From Podarcis gaigeae (taxonomy: Eukaryota): 64,000 nucleotides of DNA. The stretch lies in NCBI GenBank assembly GCA_964106915.2, contig OZ066916.1; one strand, 5' to 3'. The notes beneath the pieces were generated by a model. It was given only the letters and a program-made list of their open reading frames with translations, searched no databases and was not told the origin of the DNA. This document shows, one piece after another, positions 3,588 to 46,053 of the stretch (within the stretch, counting starts at the first letter, position 1; each line of letters begins with the position of its first letter). The translations under genes were made by a program, and so were the position numbers.

Positions 3588-5529
3588 AATTGCTTTTGAG
3601 TTAAACGGGAATTGCCCTCAAGCAAAGGCACATTGAGATATAGATATAGGGTACTCTGGGCATATTGCAGTTTATAATATGGGACCCTTCCTTGTGTTCA
3701 TGTCTTAGCATGCAGACAATCAGTGAACAAAAATTTGCTACTCTCTAAATTGCTCACAACAGTATTGATGTAATTGTGGGATGGGAAGCAAAACTGACAA
3801 TCTGCTAATATTTTCTAATTGGTAAGAAGAGCTGACAGAGTCAATACTGAGATTGGCTAAACATCCTTGATGTTTAGTAAAGTTGTCAGACTTAATTTGC
3901 CAGTTTAGATGCCTGAATGGTTATGTTATTCCACACTTCAGTAAGTATGGTAACTTCTCAAAAGTCCAACAAATAATATTCCAGTCACCAATGTAGGTTG
4001 TGGGTGTAATGTTTGAATAGTCCCAATTTGTTAATTTGTAGGATTTTTGAGCAGTTATTGTATGTATGGAAGAAGAGAACTACACAGACCAAATAAGTAA
4101 ATAAACTAGCCAAATAAGCTAAATGAGTTTTGGGCTTATGCTCTCCATCCTGTGTTCATTCTCATCACTTAGAAAATTTTACAACAAATTATAGTTCTTT
4201 GCCATTTTTAGTCACAGTCAGTTATTGTCTTCAAACCATAGTTTTCTGTAAACCAAGAATGATTGCTGTGGAAGGCAAGAGCCCACAAACACAATGTTCT
4301 TCAAGAATTGTTCTTGGAACACCAAACCATGGTTTGGCAATGTTTTAATGTGCTCATTGCACCATTTGAAAATCCCTACTGATAAACAATTGCACGCTGC
4401 TGTCAATCTGCTGTTAAAACCACAAGAATAGGGGTAATGCAATAGTACACAACTCCAAGAACATGTAAATCCACATGGACAGCAGGGCAACAATAACGCA
4501 ATGCAATAAAAACAAGATGTAAAGTATCCTAAAAATGAAAACAAACCATAATAAAACTAAGAGATAGAAACTGAAAACCAAATATATGTAGTTGCTTTCT
4601 AATCACTGGGCAAAGAATCCTGTCTAAACCTTGTGCCCAAAGGACTGTAAGGTCGATGCCAGTCCGTCACAGCACCACCACAGTAAAGGTCTTTTCCTAC
4701 ATGCAAGCATGAGACACTTCAACAAGTGACAGTTCTTAGAGAAGACCTTAATGCAAGGGCAGGATAGTATGGGAGAAGGCAGGGCATGCAGGGCTCTATT
4801 TAGAACCTTAAAGGTAGGCGGCAGCACTTTGAAGTGTGACCTGAAGTGAATGGGCAGTCATTGAAATACTCTTAAGAAGTTCTATAATTACCCACGTGAC
4901 AGAATTCTGGCAGCCAAATTCTGAACTAAATTCTGAAACTTCTGAGTTATCTTTACGAGCAGCTCCACGTATACAGTTGTCCAAACGGGACATTGGCAGA
5001 CAAGTGTGGATCATTGTAGCTAAGCTACTTTAGCGGGTGAATCATTCCCTGGCATAGGGAGTTTCAGCTGCTCGATTTCTGCTTGGTTCTTTTGGCTACA
5101 GTCCATCCAAAGTTAAGCGCTTTGCAAGCCCCACTGACTTAACTGAGCCTCTTCCACTGAAATCAATGGCATACTTCGATTGACTGCTTCATACTCTTTC
5201 TCTGTACCGAATGTTAAATGTACTTTTATTCTTCATTTTGCGTTTCAGTAATTCAGGAGCTTAGGAGTGTGTGTCTAAAGCATGTGTTTGCTTGTTCTTT
5301 TAATGTACTCCTCAACCACATGATTTATCCCTGGTTTTCAGATACTTACATGTTCACTGATCATATGGATGATAACTCTCCCTGACATTCAATATTTCAC
5401 TGATATCTAAGATGCTTGTATGCCCTAAAGAACATATGAGCTCACTGGCACCATCCCAATATTTGTTATTGCTCCTGGCATTCTGAAACTTAGATGTGGG
5501 AACAACCCTATTACTATTTGTTTTTCCAG

Positions 5530-5629
5530 GTTGATGGATTTCTGACACTGCTGTTTGGTCTTGCTAGCATTAACACACTCACAGTGATTAGTGTGACTCG
5601 CTATATAAAAGGATGCCATCCAGACAGAG
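5530..5629 (+). CDS. OPN6: Opsin exon (TM3/IL2): VDGFLTLLFGLASINTLTVISVTRYIKGCHPDR
   Basis: Acceptor tttttccag, donor gtaagg; 100 nt; rhodopsin-class TM3 sequence. Not present in the ORF track. Confidence 0.9.
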
Positions 5630-6087
5630 GTAAGGTATTTTGGACAACACAAAATTATTAAGGCTTGATATCCTGTCTCACAGGTATTCCTTTCTTACAA
5701 TAGGCCATACTTGCCCTAATTTAAATGTTTTTAAAAGAAAACTGGGTTATTCCCTTCACCCTGATTCTACAGAATCTCTTATAGACACATTGTTCTAATT
5801 TGAGTGTAACAATAAACCATGGTTTATCATTAAGGTAGCAAGCTGCAGTGGATCTTAAACTTTTGCACACACACTTACCCTTTTCTCCTTTAGCAGGGCC
5901 AGGAGAATTTCAGAAGTTTTTTGCTTCCACTCAAGACTAATCACAGTTAAGCCTTGTGTCCAAACCTGGACAAAATGCAATTAGTCTTCACTATAGTTTA
6001 TGAAGCTTTCTTGTTTCAATTGACCATTGTTAAGATTAACCACAGTTTAGGGTTCTGGCAACACTGCTAATCTGTGGCTCATTGAAA

Positions 6088-6320
6088 GCCAGTGTGGTGT
6101 AGTGGTTAAGAGCGGTAGTCTCGTAATCTGGGGAACCGGGTTCGCAAATCCGCTCCTCCTTCTGGGTGACCTTGGGCTAGTCACACTTCTCTGAAGTCTC
6201 TTAGCCCCACTCACCTCACAGAGTGTTTGTTGTGGGGGGAGGAAGGGAAAGGAGAACGTTAACTTTGAGACTCCTGAGGGTAGTGATAAAGCAGGATATC
6301 AAATCCAAACTCTTCTTCTT
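6088..6320 (+). mobile_element. tRNA-derived SINE (Squam3-like)
   Basis: Head gccagtgtggtgtagtggttaagagc with B-box-like gggttcgcaaatcc; (ctt)n tail; 9-bp TSD tcattgaaa at 6079-6087 and 6320-6328. Confidence 0.8.
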
Positions 6321-6509
6321 CATTGAAATCTACAGCAAAACCTTTCAACCTAAGGGCTGCAATCCCAATAGTTCCATCAAAGGTAGGGAATCTACAAGGA
6401 TTCCTGGTCGCACAAATGTACCAGTGCCATTTTTCTTTGTTATGACTGTGTGCCTTAAGTATACAATAGCAAAATGAGTTAAGCACCAATCTTCTGCTGT
6501 GTATTTCAG

Positions 6510-6614
6510 GGCATTGTATCAACAATAGCAACATCAATGTGGCTCTTTTTCTTATATGGATAGCAGCTTTCTTCTGGTCAGTAGCTCCAGTCCTCGGATG
6601 GGGCAGTTACACAG
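6510..6614 (+). CDS. OPN6: Opsin exon (TM4): GHCINNSNINVALFLIWIAAFFWSVAPVLGWGSYT
   Basis: Acceptor tatttcag, donor gtaatt; phase 1/1; typical opsin TM4 W...P..GWGSY motif. Confidence 0.9.
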
Positions 6615-7308
6615 GTAATTAATTTCTCTCTAGGAGAAGGTCTTTGTGGGAATTTCTCTCTAAAGTATTTGTGGGAATCTGGAAACACAACAACCAATAT
6701 CTACAAGGAGCAATTTAAATCAGGTATTATTTTTACACTATTTTAGTCTAATAGTGCTGGAATCCAGGTCAGTTTTCTAGATCCAAGCATTCTAGATGTA
6801 GGCATCACCATTTTACAATTTAGACTGCAACTCTTTATGCACTTTCCTGAGTGTAAGCCCTATTGGCCTTACTTCTGAGTCCAACAGACATATTTGGGAT
6901 TGCATCACTAATCTCAGTTTTTTAGTCTTCAAAATCCCAAACTAGAGCTCACTGAAGGAGTCACATATATCTATCCTGAAAATCCATATGGATTTTTAAA
7001 ATTATAACTTAGCATTTTGCATTGCTCAGTGGGAACTATTTCAAAGGAACTCCTGTTGGTGGGGGGGATCACTTTGTCAGCACTGTCCATAGGAGCACTG
7101 TAGCACTACTGTGATTGTGCATCTTTCATGCCTCACCCACTCAAGAAGAAATATCTCCAAAGGAGGCTGGGAAGCTCTTTCCTTGTGCATTTTTACACCC
7201 CCACAACAGCGTATGGCTGTTTCGTTATTGCCACTTTTGGTGGTGGTGCAACCAAACCAGTTGCCATTTCTGTGCTAAAAAGGGCAGGTTGCAGGTGGTT
7301 GCTTATTA

Positions 7309-7675
7309 AAGGTAAAAGTAAAGGTACCCCTGACAGTTAAGTCCAGTCGCGGATGACTCTGGGGTTGTAAGCTCATCTCGCTCTATAAGCCGAGGGAGTC
7401 AGAGTTTGTCCGCAGATAGTTTTCCGGGTCATGTGGCCAGCATGACTAAACAGCTTCTGGTGAACCAGAGCAGCACATGGAAATGCCATTTACCTTCCTG
7501 CTGGAGCAGTACCCATTTATCTACTTGCACTTTGACGTGCTTTCAAACTGCCAGGTGGGCAGGAGCTGGGACCGAACAACAGGAGCTCACCCTGTCGCAG
7601 GGATTCGAACTGCCAACCTTCTGATTGGCAAGCCCTAGGCTCTGTGGTATAGACCAGAGTGCCACCCGCGTCCCT
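7309..7675 (-). mobile_element. Sauria SINE, full length
   Basis: Reverse complement of the 3223-3587 family; 14-bp TSD gtggttgcttatta at 7295-7308 and 7685-7698. Confidence 0.9.
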
Positions 7676-7897
7676 AAGTAATAAGTGGTTGCTTATTACT
7701 CTGGTGGAAAGCTAAACTAAAGTGAAGATTACGGCAATAACTCTGCTGTAATTCTTAGACTTCATTAAGACATTTCAATTTTCTTTTCCACCTGGAATTC
7801 TAAAGAGAAATTAATCTTGATGAATTTTAAAACTGGAAAATCGCAGCAAGCTGTATTAAAAAAGCCGAATGACTAACCAAGTTCTTTTGCTTCCTAG

Positions 7898-8121
7898 ATC
7901 GCATGTATGGAACATGTGAAATAGACTGGGCAAAAGCTAACTTCTCAACCATCTACAAGTCTTATATAGTGTCCATTTTCATTTGCTGTTTCTTCCTGCC
8001 TGTGTCTGTCATGGTTTTTGCTTACGTCTCCATCATCAATACTGTCAAGTCGAGCCATGCATTAAGCGGAGCAGGTGACCCAACTGATAGACAGAGGAGA
8101 ATGGAACGAAGTGTCACAAGG
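7898..8121 (+). CDS. OPN6: Opsin exon (EL2/TM5/IL3): DRMYGTCEIDW...RMERSVTR
   Basis: Acceptor ttcctag, donor gtcagt; overlaps ORF 7903..8169; conserved EL2 Cys and TM5 FFLP motif. Confidence 0.92.
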
Positions 8122-8667
8122 GTCAGTCTGGGCTTTTCTTTAGTCTGCATTGGGTGGAGAAACTTTTAAAAGCCATGGGCTGCATTTCCTTCAGAGAAGT
8201 GGTCAGAGCAGCGTACAAGGCGTGGGTGGAATTGAGGCCAGTGGTGGATGGGAGCTAAAGTCAAAAGCGGGGCGGACACTCCTTTTCTCTCTCTGCCACC
8301 CCCTTCCCTCTCAAACACACATGCACACAGTGTGGCTGAATACAAACCATGCATTTAAAGCACGCGACTTCCCCCAAAAGAATCCTGAAACCGTAATTTG
8401 TTGAAGGTGCTGGGAAATGCAGCGCTTGTGAGAGGCAAACTAAATTTTCTAATTTAAAATGCATGTAAAGCTTTAGACAACCTTAAAATGTGAGGTAGCT
8501 AGGAGGCAGATAATTCTAGAGGATTGAAACCTATTTATTAGGTCTGTGGGCCAATGAGACACTTGGAAATACTATCCAGGTCTCCCAGTTTTCCAGGACC
8601 ACCTTCTTTACAGGGATCTCTTGGGCAAGAAAGTGGAAACAGGCAAGTCTTGTTTTCTCTCCTCTAG

Positions 8668-9111
8668 GTCTCCATAGTCATTTGCACAGCCTTTATCACA
8701 GCCTGGTCCCCATATGCGGTCATCTCCATGTGGTCCGCCTATGGTTACTCTGTGCCCAATTTAACCAGCATCCTCGCCAGCCTTTTTGCGAAATCTGCCA
8801 GCTTCTACAACCCCATCATCTACTTTGGAATGAGCTCCAAATTCCGGAAGGACATCCTCGTCTTGCTGCACTGTGCCAAAGAGATCAAGGACCCCGTGAA
8901 GCTCAAGCGGTTCAAGAACCTCAAGCAGAAACAGGAGAACTCGCCTTCTCAGAGAGAGGAGAAATACGCGCCAGAAGTTCATCCTGCACTGAGTCCTGAT
9001 TCTGGTGTGGGGAGTCGTTCTAACACCCCGCCCCCTGTCAACAGGGAGGTGTATCTTGGTGCTTTTGATACCCCGTCCAACAACCCTGATATCGAATGTG
9101 ACAGGCTGTGA
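8668..9111 (+). CDS. OPN6: Opsin last coding exon (TM6, TM7, helix 8, C-tail to ...ECDRL*)
   Basis: Acceptor ctcctctag; AWSPYA, Schiff-base Lys in FAKSAS, NPIIY; TGA at 9109-9111. Confidence 0.93.
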   Translation, partial: VSIVICTAFITAWSPYAVISMWSAYGYSVPNLTSILASLFAKSASFYNPIIYFGMSSKFRKDILVLLHCAKEIKDPVKLKRFKNLKQKQENSPSQREEKYAPEVHPALSPDSGVGSRSNTPPPVNREVYLGAFDTPSNNPDIECDRL

Positions 9112-12013
9112 CCCGGCTGTTCAAAATGTGCAGCTGGTGAACACAACCCATAGGATACTCCTGCCCCAATTCCTTTCACCCCTGCCCTTTCCTCTAGCAC
9201 TTAACATGACATACCAGCTCGACTTCCAGTGAAGCAGGACACATAAAACCAGCACTAAAAGCATGTGCGGTACATAGGGGAGACTCATAAAAATTGCTGC
9301 GTGGCTGATTAAATATAAAGGTGAGCAGCACATCTAGCCTGAGCAGGGATTCGTTTCCCCCTCTGCAGCTGCAAGTGAAAGACGTTTTTGTGGGGAAATC
9401 CATTCACTGGCAGGTAAAAAAAGAAAAACAAAATTGCCAATATTTTCTCCACCTAAATAATATAATTCAGCAGTTACCTATCTTTTCGGCTGGTTTTATT
9501 TCTTGCTTAAAATCCTGGCTTTATTCACTTTGCTTGCAGTCCTCACAACAGTGCATTTACTCAGGGGCCGGTCAGGAAATAGCACTGCAATGCTGCTCCA
9601 CAGTCAGCCACCAGAGGGTGGATAATCTTTTAACATACTCCCTGTGGGAGACTAAACATTTCAGGTCCCAGGTGCTGCCTACCGGAGAGCAGTTATGAGA
9701 ACCAAAACCCTTGTTCTTAAGTCTGAAGGCTGCCGCTGAGCCACTAGAGCCGAAGTCCTGTGTCCTTAATCGCAGGTGCAATTAGGTCATTTAAGACTCC
9801 GGACTTAACGTTCTTATGGGGGAAAGCCCTCTTTAGATGGTAACATGCATCAATTCACTATCTTCCGAACGCTGCCTGCCAGCGGGGAGAAGGGGCCTTC
9901 CTGTTCCTCTTCTGAATGGGACCCTTGGACTTCTTTCCCCAAAGCCCCACTTTGACAGAACCTCAGGCCACAGGTGAGATGTAATAAACTGCCCTGCACG
10001 CCATATTGACAACCGGTGCTTTTCATGCCTGTTGCTATTGCTACCATGTTTTCCCGTCTGAATTAAGAAGTACAAATGACACCTTTGCCCTCCTAATTGT
10101 GGGTAATATGTAGAGGAGGCAGACTGAGGCAAGGAAACGGCTCCCTCTTTGTCTTCAGAAGCAGCTTCACCTAGCTTCACTGATTTATAATTATATCTAT
10201 ATACCGCCACTTCTAAAAAAATATCACAGCAGTTTACAACCATTGTACATAAAACCATATAATACAAACCATTATTCTATTTAAAAAAGACAAATCAAAG
10301 ATCAACTAACTACCACAGAAGTTTTTTTTCTTAATTGCCAACACCAGCTTCATGGCAAAACCACAACAGATTAAACCAAACCAAGAAATGAGTTTAATAT
10401 GTAGCAGGAAGGTATGTACCTTGTTTTGTCTTAAATAATTGCAGGTGCAGAAGAACCTAATTCTTACTGGGAAGACATACTTCTTTTTTTAAACAAGGCT
10501 CCAAAATACATGGGAGTGGGGGAGACTCTTCTGATAATTGGTGGGAGGCCGGTGACATCCATGGGTTGCCATCCCAGTAAGATTGAGGCTCCTTTATAAC
10601 CATTTGAGGAATAGCAAGTTATACAGCTGCATGCTATGTCCCTATTTTGGCCCTCATGGAATTATCTTATCTCTAAACCTTCTGCCAACCAGGACAAGAC
10701 CCTAATATTAATAAAAGAGAGAGATTGGGATTTGTATTGTTTATCTCTCCACTGAAAAGGGGGGTGTTGTTCATGCAGGGGGGAAGAAAATCCCCAGCAA
10801 AACCCTAATAGGCATACTTTATTTTTTGTGAAATAAACAGAAATTTCACAGGAGGGGTCTTATATTTATACAAAGGTGCTAAGGCTAAGTAGGAACTGCT
10901 GTTGTAGTTAGGAGTTAGTCTGGGGCATACAAATTTTAGGGTGTACCTAGGGTCTCTCTATGGCCAGCATTTGAGGGGTTCACTTGCCCTTCTATCAGAG
11001 AGCCCTTAAAATGCCAGTGATGAGACCAGGAGCCTGCAGTCATGTGCCATGAAAAGCACACTGCTTCACTATATAAAGAGAGCTCTTTGTGTTTTTAAAA
11101 TGATTTGGCACGGATTTCAGGCCCTGGTGCAGCATTTTCAACATGGATATGAACAACTTTCTTTCTCTTTTGGCTTTTTATACAAAGACTGCCATGACAA
11201 CAGCACAGTATCCATGAGTGGGCACATGTGATAAAGATCTGTGCTCTGGAATATTCTTTTTTATGCGCCTATTTGTATTTGTACATTTGACCAACAAATG
11301 TGGTGTGTGTGGGGTCATTATCATTTTTAAAACTTGTGGAATTTTACACTCACTGGCATGAAGGGAGGGGGCGGGGGGAGCCTAATGTGTCTTTGCAAAA
11401 GCTTCATTTTTCTATTTGTATTCCTTGGGATGGTTACAAAAAAACCTTCCTTTCCTCCCTCAGCATGTTTGTTTTGAGATTATCATCTCTAATTTCAATT
11501 TTAAAACAAATAAACTTTATAAGCAATAAGAAAGAGGACTATGATGTCTTTCATGGCCATAGACGAACTGAGGGCACATTCATTTTTAGGAGAAAATGGG
11601 AGATTTTTTTCTTGAGGGACTTCATTACCATGATTAATGAAAAGCTAATGCATATAGTGTGTTTCATCCTGGGTTCATTTCAGAAGCAAAATGAACCAAA
11701 TGATGCCAGTAGCCAAGTCTTTTCCTTGGAAGATGAAGCAGGATGAGGAGGCCATAGGATGGCTTAAAAAATGGTCCTGCCACTTCTTCCTGATGTTCAA
11801 CACAATGCTTCACATAATATGTCTGTGACAGATTATCCTTTTAGTTGCCCACTTTTGGTCTAGCAGCAAAAGCTGTCTTTCCCCCATTGTTTCTTTGTAT
11901 GGAGAATGCCACCAGATCTATGCCTCATTCTTTGCATGTGAGGCATTGTTTGTATAGGGCCAAAGGCCACAGTCCCTGGCTAGACCAGTCAGGTCCATAA
12001 TAACCATAACTAA

Positions 12014-34009: not shown

Positions 34010-35180
34010 GCAAGCCTGCTCCAGCCCTTCAGTTATTTGAAGACAGCCATCATCTACCCTTAATCTTCTCTTTCCCCAGGCTAAACATATCCAACTCCTT
34101 CAATGATTCCTCATAGGATGTGACTTCCAGATCCTTTGGGCTGGGTGTTCATCAGTATGTGGATGATACCCAGCTCTACCTCTTTCAAATCAGAACCAGT
34201 GAAGGCGGTGAAGGTCCTGTGTGAGTGCCTGGAGGTGGTTGGAGGATGGATGGCGGCTAACAGATTGAGGTTGAATCCTGACAAGACAGAAGTACTGTTT
34301 TGGGAGGACAGGAGGCGGGTGGGTGTGGAGGACTCCCTGGTCCTGAATGGGGTAACTGTGCCCCTGAAGGACTAGGTGCGCAGGCTGGGAGTCATTTTGG
34401 ACTCACAGCTGTCCATAGAGGCGCAGGTCAATTCTGTGTCCAGGGCAGCTGTTTATCAGCTCCATCTGGTACGCAGGCTGAGACCATACATGCCCGCAGA
34501 CTGTCTCACCAGAGTGGTGCATGCTCTGGTATCTCCTGCTTGGACTACAGCAATGCACTCTATGTGGGGCTATCTTTGAAGGTGACCCGGAAACTACAAC
34601 TAATCCAGAATGCGGCAGCTAAACTGGTGACTGGGAGCGGCCGCCGAGACCATATAACACCGGTCTTGAAAGACCTACACTGGCTCCCAGTACGTTTCTG
34701 AGCACAATTCAAAGTGTTGGTGCTGACCTTTAAAGCCCTAAACAGCCTCGGTCCGGTATACCTGAAGGAGCATCTCCAACTCTATCATTCTTCCCGGACA
34801 CTGAGGTCCAGCGCCAAGGGCCTTCTGGCAGTTCCCTTGCTACGAGAAGCCAAGTTACAGGGAACCAGGCAGAGAGCCTTCTCGGTAGTGGCACCCGCCC
34901 TGTGGAACGCCCTCCCACCAGATGTCAAAGAGAAAAATAACTACCAAACTTTTAGAAGACATCTGAAAGCAGCCGTGTTTAGGGAATCTTTAAATATTTA
35001 ATAGGTTATTGTATTTTAGTGTTTTGCTGGAAGCCGCCAGAGTGGCTGGGGAAACCCAGCCAGATGGGCGGGGTCTAAATAAATATTATTATTATTATTA
35101 TTATACCATCCCAATCACCTCTCCCTCTTCAGCTGGTCAATGTCCTTAAAATGTAGAATCCAGAACTGTGGCCTGAACAG
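34010..35180 (-). mobile_element. Old CR1 fragment split by the L2 insertion (about 34010-34133 and 35104-35180)
   Basis: ggctaaacatatccaactccttcaatgattcctcatagga...ttccagatcctt resumes after the L2 tail with gtcaatgtccttaaaatgtagaatccagaactg, as in antisense CR1 ORF2 3' region. Confidence 0.55.
34134..35103 (+). mobile_element. L2-clade LINE, 5'-truncated, frameshifted RT C-terminus plus (TTA)n tail
   Basis: HQYVDDTQLY (YADD-like), NRLRLNPDKTEVL, LGVILDSQLS, LDYSNALYVGL, QNAAAKLVTG, HITPVLKDLHWLPV are spread over several frames; tail ends in (tta)n. Confidence 0.92.
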
Positions 35181-42828: not shown

Positions 42829-42903
42829 AGGGCAAACCCAAAAAAGGTGTGCAGTACCCATCAACACTTGAATATTCATCTTCCTCAAACACACCTGTTA
42901 AAG
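42829..42903 (+). CDS. VIT: VIT coding exon 5 (EGKPKKGVQYPSTLEYSSSSNTPVK), GC donor
   Basis: ttccacag acceptor; a phase-1 end requires the donor ag|gcaagt. Confidence 0.85.

Positions 42904-42907
<4 letters not shown>

Positions 42908-42986
<79 letters not shown>
42908..42986. repeat. (GT)n(GA)n microsatellite
   Basis: Direct reading of the sequence. Confidence 0.9.
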
Positions 42987-42991
<5 letters not shown>

Positions 42992-43362: not shown

Positions 43363-43584
43363 GAGGTTCCCAACGGAAAGAGTATCGGACAACTGCAGTG
43401 CCATTACAAACTACACAAGGTGCATTTACAACAGCAAAAGCTGCTATCAGGACAACCGAATTTGTCAGCACAACTCCAAAGCCAGCAACAATCCCAACTA
43501 CAGTCACGACAACCATCACTATCCAGGCAACTACTGGTGTAGCTACAAAGCCTCCAATTGCGATTCACAAGGTCAGGGACATAG
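43363..43584 (+). CDS. VIT: VIT coding exon 6 (Thr/Pro/Ala-rich mucin-like linker)
   Basis: aatatag / gtgagc; within ORF 43308..43673; phase 1/1, 222 nt. Confidence 0.85.
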
Positions 43585-44503
43585 GTGAGCAAAATGGCAG
43601 AGGTCATAGTGGCTTAACAATGTGTTTGTGCTATAACAGGAGTGAAGAAATTTCAACCTGTGGATCTAGTTAGGCCTCCCCAAGCTGTCACTTATAGTGT
43701 GACAAGTAAAATCTCAGCACAGCTAAATTCAAAAGGAAGACTCTGGCATGTGTTCAAGCCAGGTTGTGAATTCATAAAACTCTGAAGTCAAGCAAAGGCT
43801 GCAAAGGATTGGATTTATAATTTACCTGATGCCGTAGGATGGGATATCAGTTTAGTCGACAGTTGGGTGGCCATACCAGGCAGCATGTCAGTATGCCAAG
43901 TTCAACGCCTGAGGGTCAGTTCACACAACCAAAGTCCAAAATCCAAAGGTCAGGAAACAAGGTTCATGGTCATGCCAAGTCCAAAGTCCAGTAGTCGGGA
44001 TACAATACAGAGTCAAACCTGAAGCTCAGTCCTGTGGCGGTCCAGAAACACCCAAATCAAGGCCCATCAACATGGGCAGCTGAGAAAAAACAGCCCCTCA
44101 GCTCTGCTTCCCTTTTGTAATTTCCATGCTGATTGCAGCATCTGGGCTTGATGAGGCAGGTGACCCTCACCTGCTCCAAGCCTACTTCAGCTGAGCAATC
44201 ACACCCCGTCCTCCCAGAGCTAGTTAGCCCCACCTGGTCAAGTAGGGAGCTGGACTGTGGGCCCTTGCCTGTCTCAGCCTCCTAGAGTGCCACTCCCGCT
44301 GCTCCTACACCTCAGAGCTTCTGTATTCATCCTCCCCATCCTCTGCTCTTACTCTTACTCTTACAATTTAAAGAAGGATCATCATCTTCACAGAACAGTG
44401 CACTTTGGCCATTTGTTTTCCATCGCCTCATTCTCTGTTTTGCATACTGATTTTTCTCCTTTTCCATTTGCTATAGTGAGGGCTTCTCTGGTTTGTTCTT
44501 AGG

Positions 44504-44594
44504 GAACTGTTTAGGGAAGATTTAATGTTTAACAGAGTATTGTATTTTAATATTTTGTTGGAAGCCATACAGATGGGCGGGGTATAAATAATAA

Positions 44595-44640
<46 letters not shown>
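44504..44640 (+). mobile_element. L2 3'-terminal fragment with (TTA)n tail
   Basis: Matches 34975-35103 (tgtttaggga..ttt...attgtatttta.t.tttg.tggaagcc...cagatgggcgggg..taaata..(tta)n); flanked by ttagg at 44499-44503 and 44638-44642. Confidence 0.85.
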
Positions 44641-44641
44641 G

Positions 44642-44692
44642 GTTCTAGCAACGTCCATCCAGCTTACTCCTCAGTAGCAGCTGTAGCATCAA
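44642..44692 (+). CDS. VIT: VIT coding exon 7 (GSSNVHPAYSSVAAVAS)
   Basis: Acceptor (tta)n-g, perfect donor gtaagt; 51 nt, phase 1/1; its last base a completes AGG (Arg) with the next exon. Confidence 0.7.
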
Positions 44693-44994
44693 GTAAGTAC
44701 AGAGGCAGTGCATTGTCATATCACGACTGCAATCCTAGGAAGCCCAGGGAAATCAGTGGGTTTATGTCTGATTATACACCATGGGAATGTGTTTAAATGG
44801 CCATTGTTTTATCTCTTTCACTAAGGAAAAAGTAGCTTAAGGAAAAAGTAGCTTCAGTTATCCCTGTTTTATAAGATGTTCTCCATACCTTCCATCCATG
44901 CCATAGAACTACAGTTCCCAAGGTTCCCTGGAAAAAGATAATGACTGTTCAACTAGTTTGAATCTTTCTTGTGACTAGACCCATCTCTACATAA

Positions 44995-45119: not shown

Positions 45120-45216
45120 CTAAGTAATATATATCTCTCTGTAATTATTGTTTCATAAATCCTATATTTAATCTCAGTTGGTAGAGCCTGAGAATCTTAA
45201 TCTCAGGTTATGGGTT

Positions 45217-45749
45217 CTGAGCAGAATTCAAAGTGTTGATGCTGACCTTTAAAGCCTTAAACCAGGCATAGGCAAACTCAGCCCTACATATGTTTTGGGA
45301 CTACAACTCCCATGATTCCTAGCTAACAGGACCAGTGGTCAGGGATGGTGGGAATTGTAGTCCCAAAACATCTGGAGGGCTGAGTTTGCCTATGCCTGCC
45401 CTAAACAGCCTCAGCCCAGTATACCTGAAGGAGTGTCTCCACCCCCCATCGTTCTACCTGGACCGAGGGCCTTCTGGCAGCGCCGAGGGCCTTCTGGCAG
45501 TTCCCTCACTACGAGAAGTGAAGTTACAGGGAACCAGGCAGAGGGCCTTCTCGGTAGTGGCACCCGCCCTATGGAATGCCCTCCCACCAGATGTCAAAGA
45601 GATAAACAACTATATGACATTTAGAAGACTTCTGAAGGCAGCCCTGTTTAGGGAAATTTAGAATGATTGATGTTTTAATGTATTTTTAATCTTTTGTTGG
45701 AAGCCGCCCAGAGTGGGGAAAGCCAGCCAGATGGGTGGGGTAGAAATAA

Positions 45750-45802
<53 letters not shown>

Positions 45803-45803
45803 T
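45217..45803 (+). mobile_element. L2 LINE 3' fragment (same family as 34134-35103)
   Basis: QGTRQRAFSVVAPALWNALPPDVKE identical to the other copy; (tta)n tail. Confidence 0.9.
45263..45398. mobile_element. hAT-type MITE nested in L2
   Basis: 23-bp perfect TIR caggcataggcaaactcagccct; 8-bp TSD ccttaaac / ccctaaac. Confidence 0.9.
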
Positions 45804-46014
45804 ATGGGTTTGAGTCTCATGTTGGGCAAAAGATTCTTACATTGCAAGCGGTTAGACTAGATGACCTGTGTGCTTCTATGTTAAAAACTAAAGGATTAGG
45901 ACAAGAGTCTCTTACCTCCTGCAGCTATAAAATTATCACTTTTAAAAAGAAATGTCTTTTAAAAATAGTTTTGGGAACTGCAAATAACATTTTCTGTTTT
46001 AATGCATATTTTAG

Positions 46015-46053
46015 GGCAGGTTCAAGCTGTACAAGGAAGAACCCAGAATCAAG
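46015..46053 (+). CDS. VIT: VIT coding exon 8 (RQVQAVQGRTQNQ)
   Basis: attttag / gtatgt; 39 nt, phase 1/1. Confidence 0.72.

Follow-up and report, generated by a model that had tools for sequence, protein, structure and literature searches.

A LINE end with a (TTA)n tail at the splice acceptor of a conserved vitrin exon in the lizard Podarcis gaigeae

How is an exon spliced when the end of a retrotransposon stands between it and the pyrimidine tract of the preceding intron? The question arises in the vitrin gene (VIT) of Podarcis gaigeae, within a window of 64,000 nt from contig OZ066916.1 (assembly GCA_964106915.2); the features of the splice site described below are all on the + strand. The answer that we favour, with moderate confidence, is that a 134-base LINE end, likely of the L2 clade, was inserted long ago at the acceptor, and that the exon is still spliced at its own AG, with (TTA)n as a weak substitute for the tract.

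The gene is identified as vitrin by the LCCL and VWA domains found in a domain search. It has an LCCL domain, a Thr/Ser-rich linker and two VWA domains, its best hits are named vitrins, and the named lacertid vitrins align exon by exon over 38870–60211, hits that fit a host of wall-lizard type. The exon upstream of the insert (43363–43584), encoding part of the Thr-rich linker, is 97–99% identical to named vitrins (two best hits); it is covered by RNA-type contigs of two runs (X17 and X18), and ends in phase 1 before a GT donor at 43585. The exon in question (44642–44692) comprises 51 nt and is symmetric (phase 1/1). It is followed by the consensus donor GTAAGT (44693–44698) and by a 39-nt exon (46015–46053) that is also present in RNA-type contigs, and is thus the in-frame exon with a perfect donor that the first-pass annotation had described. 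Its peptide is found in 120 of the 176 vitrin entries examined, so the exon is real, and by comparison of these sequences it is conserved from lizards to birds. That orthologues share it was a premise of the first-pass reading, and they do. Elsewhere in VIT, the donor of the exon that ends at 42903 is GC (AAG/GCAAGT) and runs directly into approximately (GT)19(GA)23 (42900–42991), a second microsatellite touching a splice site of the gene. Upstream of VIT, the window contains the last exons of a rhodopsin-family receptor (7873–9108, 7tm_1 domain), which from its appearance we take to be opsin-like.

The insert that abuts the exon is formed of 134 bases in two parts. The first (44507–44595) is a 5′-truncated LINE end, comprising the last ORF2 codons and the 3′ UTR with a 23-nt internal deletion. 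The second is the tail (TTA)15 (44596–44640), which is free of AG and occupies the position of the pyrimidine tract. The insert is a high-copy repeat, giving 43 scored matches from 467 candidates in the genome; its last 32 bases have 3982 exact genome matches (0 for a control), and a piece of ORF2 gives 41,043 candidates. The majority of the matching copies extend upstream into ORF2, which makes the insert a LINE end rather than a SINE. One long copy encodes an RVT_1 domain (E 9e-38), and its closest database proteins are from Podarcis (95–97% identical), one of them carrying PF03372/PF14529 (APE-type endonuclease). The copies (60 usable of 68) have variable 5′ ends, a common 3′ end and (TTA)n-type tails, as in 5′ truncation. 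On these sequence grounds the insert is a 3′ fragment of a non-LTR retrotransposon. The family is likely to be of the L2 clade, given an ORF2 C-terminus that we take to be L2-like in look and nearest non-reptile hits of the reverse transcriptase that are coelacanth and teleost proteins (42–49%); no named L2 reference appeared among its protein and solved-structure matches. The L2 3′ end of about 135 bp with (TTA)n claimed at first pass therefore stands as a LINE 3′ end with its tail, while ‘L2’, which draws on general features of the clade, is only likely.

The 23-nt deletion was considered as a subfamily marker and rejected, because it recurs in copies of different backgrounds. Two further sense-strand, 5′-truncated copies of the family lie at 45212–45805 and 34282–35100, the former with an (ATT)18 tail that stops some 210 nt short of the next VIT acceptor. 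L051 has two long copies in the same orientation (3717–9375), 4.8 kb apart, one with an open RT frame of 443 codons. In L057–L086 several LINE subfamilies have the 3′ end of the insert in common; some of these subfamilies have copies 0–2% apart, so the family was recently active and polymorphic insertions are likely.

The insert is flanked by the sequence TTAGG on both sides (44499–44503 and 44638–44642), a candidate target-site duplication. The right-hand repeat includes the acceptor AG (44640–44641), with the exon start at 44642 taken from contig arithmetic (see below). Homology to other copies starts at 44507, making 44504–44506 three extra bases. The left repeat and these bases (44499–44506) together form an 8-mer that recurs within the LINE at 44511–44518, a match seen for 0.9% of random 20-mers of the window, and the extra bases are also complementary to the flank. 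Either origin points to a 5′ end that would have been joined by templated synthesis, and PMC4245944 describes 5′ extra bases of L2-clade elements as often templated from the flanks. The same source gives duplications that peak at 3–5 bp for the L2 clade, and of 5 bp for ZfL2-1. A 5-nt duplication would thus fit an L2-type insertion, but by itself it is at chance level, with a repeat of at least 5 nt in 13 of 120 swapped-flank controls for the insert’s own flanks. Nor is there an excess in the family (4 of 60 copies with at least 5 nt, against 7% in the null), in a survey with rough breakpoints from which 8 of 68 other copies were dropped for lack of a tail anchor. The repeat that the first-pass annotation likened to a target-site duplication is accordingly present on both sides, and alone does not exceed chance. 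Duplications are scarce in a squamate SINE whose end is L2-like (PMC7983390), and for reptile Bov-B and Sauria elements PMC13295347 reports that the first duplicated base agrees with the tail repeat.

The old AG (44501–44502), the (TTA)15 and the new AG are base for base where the first-pass annotation placed them, and the LINE end does separate the exon from a host tract. Its proposal that the (TTA)n tail supplies the 3′ splice site itself is not borne out. At least the G at 44641 should be host DNA, and under target-primed insertion all of TTAG would be. On that reading of the junction the acceptor TTAG is host sequence, and the tail would replace only the tract and the branch point.

The assignment of the old acceptor can be questioned, since a second and stronger-looking one, TAG at 44474–44476, lies upstream of the insert. 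It is preceded by a branch-point-like heptamer (A44450) and a 15-nt pyrimidine run, the whole element (44445–44476) being unique in the genome; its use reads into a stop, and its AG is absent in organism D (44476 G>A). If this were the ancestral acceptor, only TAG would be duplicated, 44477–44506 would be a 30-nt templated filler and the ‘old AG’ would never have served the host. The element has the best branch-point-like motif, at −26, and a 76-nt AG-free zone, and a decoy acceptor this good 26 nt before a real one is unusual. The filler would moreover hold the LINE 8-mer (0.9% background) and a weakly LINE-like 16-mer, but the latter is not significant (4.5–8.5% of controls), 44483–44500 is itself a good tract with 15 of 18 pyrimidines, and a 5-nt duplication with three extra bases, from a LINE copy or flank fold-back, is a simpler junction. 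We consider an ancestral TAG distinctly unlikely. The stretch 44477–44498 was also tried as LINE-derived and rejected, as it is not significant against controls and is unique in the genome.

The insert is shared with other organisms. Fourteen sequencing runs contained at least half of the words of the region, and four DNA runs were examined (organisms A, B, D and G, leaving aside C, E, F and H). In all four a contig (44331–44550) crosses the left junction unbroken, at a depth of 9.8–12.5 that corresponds to single copy (10.6–13 to the right of the exon), while the right-hand contig starts at the skipped repeat. No empty-site joint is present among the 15 of 25 joints listed for these runs, so with the depth at the left junction the insert is shared and apparently homozygous in each of the four. 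Their flanks differ from the window by 0.2–1.0% (hand count). All four lack one 6-nt unit of a tandem repeat at 44346 and have different letters at 44330/44331, so the genome of the window has private indels in 44330–44364. A metagenome scan for the exon gave 0 hits.

The subfamily of the insert is old, as judged from the divergence of 18 copies, of which nearest neighbours are 4.4–13.9% apart, the median of all pairs is 9.9% and none are near-identical; the set (18 of 26 copies with at least 200 aligned bases) was chosen by similarity to the insert and is small compared with the family. Other subfamilies include pairs at 0–2%. The age of the insert itself is poorly bounded, because its first 60 bases have only one mismatch from two other copies. 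Dating from its own 82 aligned bases was abandoned as too noisy, with five differences from the majority, several of them shared with other copies.

Transcripts were sought in four low-depth runs presumed to be RNA, all from organism I (X15–X18), none being listed for the organism of the window itself; of these, X15 and X16 have no coverage of the exon. The join 44692>46015, with GT and AG at the intron ends, is present in X17 and X18, which come from two studies. In record 24 of X18 there are 147 letters between 43584 and 46969, which is what exons of 51, 39 and 57 nt add up to, and this places the entry into the exon exactly at 44642; X17 is consistent, and the 43584>44642 junction is read from the length arithmetic of this one contig. 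None of the joints 43584>44503, 43584>44573 or 43584>46015 is among those listed for X15–X18, an absence that carries no weight, as contigs drop rare forms at this depth, rows at repeats were dropped and 13 further joints went unlisted. Organism I differs from the window at about 40 of 1535 intron letters (2.6%, or 0.5–4.1% over seven pieces, by hand count). Its contigs cover neither junction of the insert, and an empty allele may be the source of its RNA. The divergence of the subfamily exceeds this 2.6%, however, and the insert therefore likely predates the split; on this basis we think it quite probable that organism I is a carrier. An X16 contig runs into a different LINE copy at about 45212, so organism I has at least one of the copies of the next intron in common with the window.

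Vitrin proteins provide a broader view of exon use. The survey covered 176 entries, two clusters being listed for 15 of 16 and 15 of 42 members. Precise skipping of the 51-nt exon is found in 7 of 19 lacertid entries and inclusion in the other 12. The skipping entries are from Lacerta agilis, Podarcis muralis and P. lilfordi, one being an older version of another, and the exon is included in all three Zootoca entries and the one of P. raffonei. The alternative forms of P. lilfordi were annotated from RNA-seq and Iso-Seq, according to PMC10214862. In the 157 non-lacertid entries the exon is included in 108, skipped in 3 and not scorable in 46, many of which are partial bird models lacking both this exon and the next short one. 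The three (of 111 scorable) are a hypothetical protein of Phrynosoma and two UniRef bird entries, and in anoles, geckos, snakes, turtles, crocodilians and birds none of the RefSeq isoforms examined skips the 51-nt exon alone. The ratio of 7/19 to 3/111 is a hint, though not a test, that the insertion may have made an always-used exon optional; it concerns a single lineage with uneven annotation, and would hold only if the skipping species carry the insert. A model of zebra finch (UniRef, P0084) apparently enters the exon at the equivalent of an in-frame CAG at 44661–44663.

The candidate acceptors were compared by simple counts (pyrimidines of 18, longest run, AG-free zone). The tract of the new AG has 12 of 18 pyrimidines, within the range of 9–17 for 14 other VIT acceptors, and its pyrimidine runs reach no more than 2, shorter than at any other acceptor scored in the gene (4–15). 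There are 67 nt free of AG upstream and no yTnAy motif within 90 nt. The presumed ancestral tract and AG (44483–44502) are now out of frame, and folding predictions have the tract paired with the start of the insert, the unpaired fraction being 0.23 compared with 0.42 in the inferred empty allele. The predicted local hairpin has −14.1 kcal/mol, equalled or bettered by 14 of 500 shuffles in a window chosen post hoc.

Competition between the old AG and the new had been suggested to give a poison isoform targeted by NMD, with TTA length tuning the output of vitrin. The premature stop is there in silico (44523–44525); it lies far upstream of later junctions, and the old AG has the better tract. 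In cancer, exon skipping shifts when the tracts at U2AF sites change in length (PMC11304650). Use of the old acceptor would nevertheless define a 190-nt exon, with its tract predicted to be paired. The new tract is homogeneous, so above about seven repeats the 20 bases before the new AG are constant, which argues against tuning by length. Poison isoform and length tuning are both unsupported, and we regard this regulatory scheme as improbable. Of the three outcomes expected at first pass, inclusion at 44642 and skipping do exist in lacertids, but the other candidate acceptors bring the possible outcomes to more than three.

One such candidate is carried by the LINE, whose 3′ UTR has a branch-point-like motif (A44550) and a CAG at 44570–44572 (the element spanning 44545–44572). 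This is the only upstream AG whose use stays open, with an in-frame extension of 23 codons including 15 Leu, so that the vitrin linker could gain 8 further residues together with about 15 Leu in a run of variable length. The yTnAy lies 22 nt before the CAG, and changes of a 3-nt repeat cannot break the frame. Yet the CAG is preceded by no more than 10 pyrimidines in 18 positions and by an AAG 8 nt away, the one informative contig lacks the extra bases, and the extension is absent from the protein entries examined (0 of 19 lacertid entries with such a Leu run), all of which makes this isoform highly improbable.

The weakness of the new tract bears also on whether carriers use the exon at all. 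The insert might be confined to the clade of organisms A–G and absent from organism I and the named species, the carriers largely skipping the exon and the skipping in lacertid proteins being older and unrelated. Such a history gains from a tract whose run length is the weakest in the gene, from NF1, where Alu elements that land in the AG or tract of an acceptor lead to skipping (PMC3219598), from the harmlessness of in-frame skipping, and from the presumptive nature of organism I’s carrier status. A clade-confined insert sits poorly with a subfamily older than the divergence from organism I. In the rows listed, none of the four carriers has a change in the exon or its donor, which speaks against skipping there, with little power at about 1% divergence. 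We judge this history unlikely, and inclusion of the exon behind the (TTA)n tail reasonably likely.

Our preferred explanation, an old insertion at an acceptor that still uses its own AG, would proceed as follows. The bottom strand would be nicked just before TTAG, and the freed end would prime reverse transcription on the (UUA)n tail of the RNA through a 3-nt microhomology. A second nick 5 nt further on would duplicate TTAGG, and the 5′ end would be joined with three templated extra bases. The exon would then keep the host TTAG and lose its tract and branch point. The consensus donor 51 nt away could support exon definition, the 67-nt AG-free zone would leave no nearer competing acceptor, and the stranded old tract would be partly paired with the insert, as predicted. 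Since the exon is in frame and encodes part of a low-complexity linker, skipping it part of the time would do no harm, and so the insertion could have spread and persisted. A more ambitious combination can be formulated, in which (TTA)n-tailed LINEs generally prime on TTAG acceptors and repair them by keeping the host AG and lending the tail as tract. The VIT event would fall in an ancestor of Lacerta and Podarcis, turning into a cassette an exon always included in other reptiles and in birds, and the LINE CAG would yield a vitrin isoform with a poly-leucine stretch, perhaps membrane-retained, that lengthens and shortens with the microsatellite. That all of this holds together is very unlikely.

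A genome has of the order of 2 × 10^5 acceptors. With 3 × 10^9 oriented positions and at least 4 × 10^4 copies, about three exact hits would be expected before selection, a number that would rise if TTA is preferred in priming. A LINE family of this size is thus expected to produce a few such hits in each genome by chance; a hit on an acceptor is unremarkable, and the interest lies in its persistence. The VIT insertion is real, shared and tolerated, and represents a variant within a phenomenon already known. It would offer a natural, dated example of a retroelement that struck an acceptor and was tolerated because the tract was replaced by the element’s own tail, and a route from constitutive to alternative exon that can be tested. 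It also probes how weak a tract vertebrate exon definition can carry, having no run above 2 pyrimidines and no consensus branch point. Its reach is limited, since it concerns 17 residues of a low-complexity linker, in a matrix protein that has been little studied, and no phenotype is attached to it. A literature search that excluded most subscription journals and supplements turned up no report on this locus, nor any on a trinucleotide tail of a LINE that serves the acceptor of a host exon.

Several known systems share parts of this arrangement. In the exonization of retroelements the poly(T) of an antisense Alu can act as a pyrimidine tract, and MIR and Alu elements are said to provide examples. 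The VIT tail likewise would supply the U-rich element of an acceptor; exonization, however, creates an exon derived from the element, whereas here the element stays intronic, is in the sense orientation and would serve an old host exon. In CFTR the TG/T tract is a microsatellite at an acceptor that modulates skipping. The VIT tail resembles it, and the microsatellite acceptors of PMC11304650, in placing an unstable repeat at the U2AF-binding position. Effects have been measured for those tracts, which are poly(T) or (TG)n(T)n, whereas the VIT tail is known from its sequence alone. Like ZfL2-1 and ZfL2-2, as described in PMC4245944, the insert combines a candidate target duplication in the range of 3–5 bp, 5′ truncation, templated bases or microhomology at the 5′ junction and a short-repeat tail; unlike them, the lizard family has no detected excess of duplications, and its membership of the clade is only likely.

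The closest parallel is with the Alu and L1 insertions of NF1, where, according to PMC3219598, human Alu insertions into acceptors cause skipping and one acceptor was hit twice by retroelements. In both genes a target-primed retroelement in the AG or tract of an acceptor would cut the exon off from its signals. The NF1 insertions arose de novo and are pathogenic, causing skipping, whereas that in VIT is common to several organisms and precedes an exon that is in frame. Unlike the NF1 cases, the VIT insert brings as its tail a sense-strand, U-rich, AG-free trinucleotide repeat, which could take the place of the tract that it displaced.
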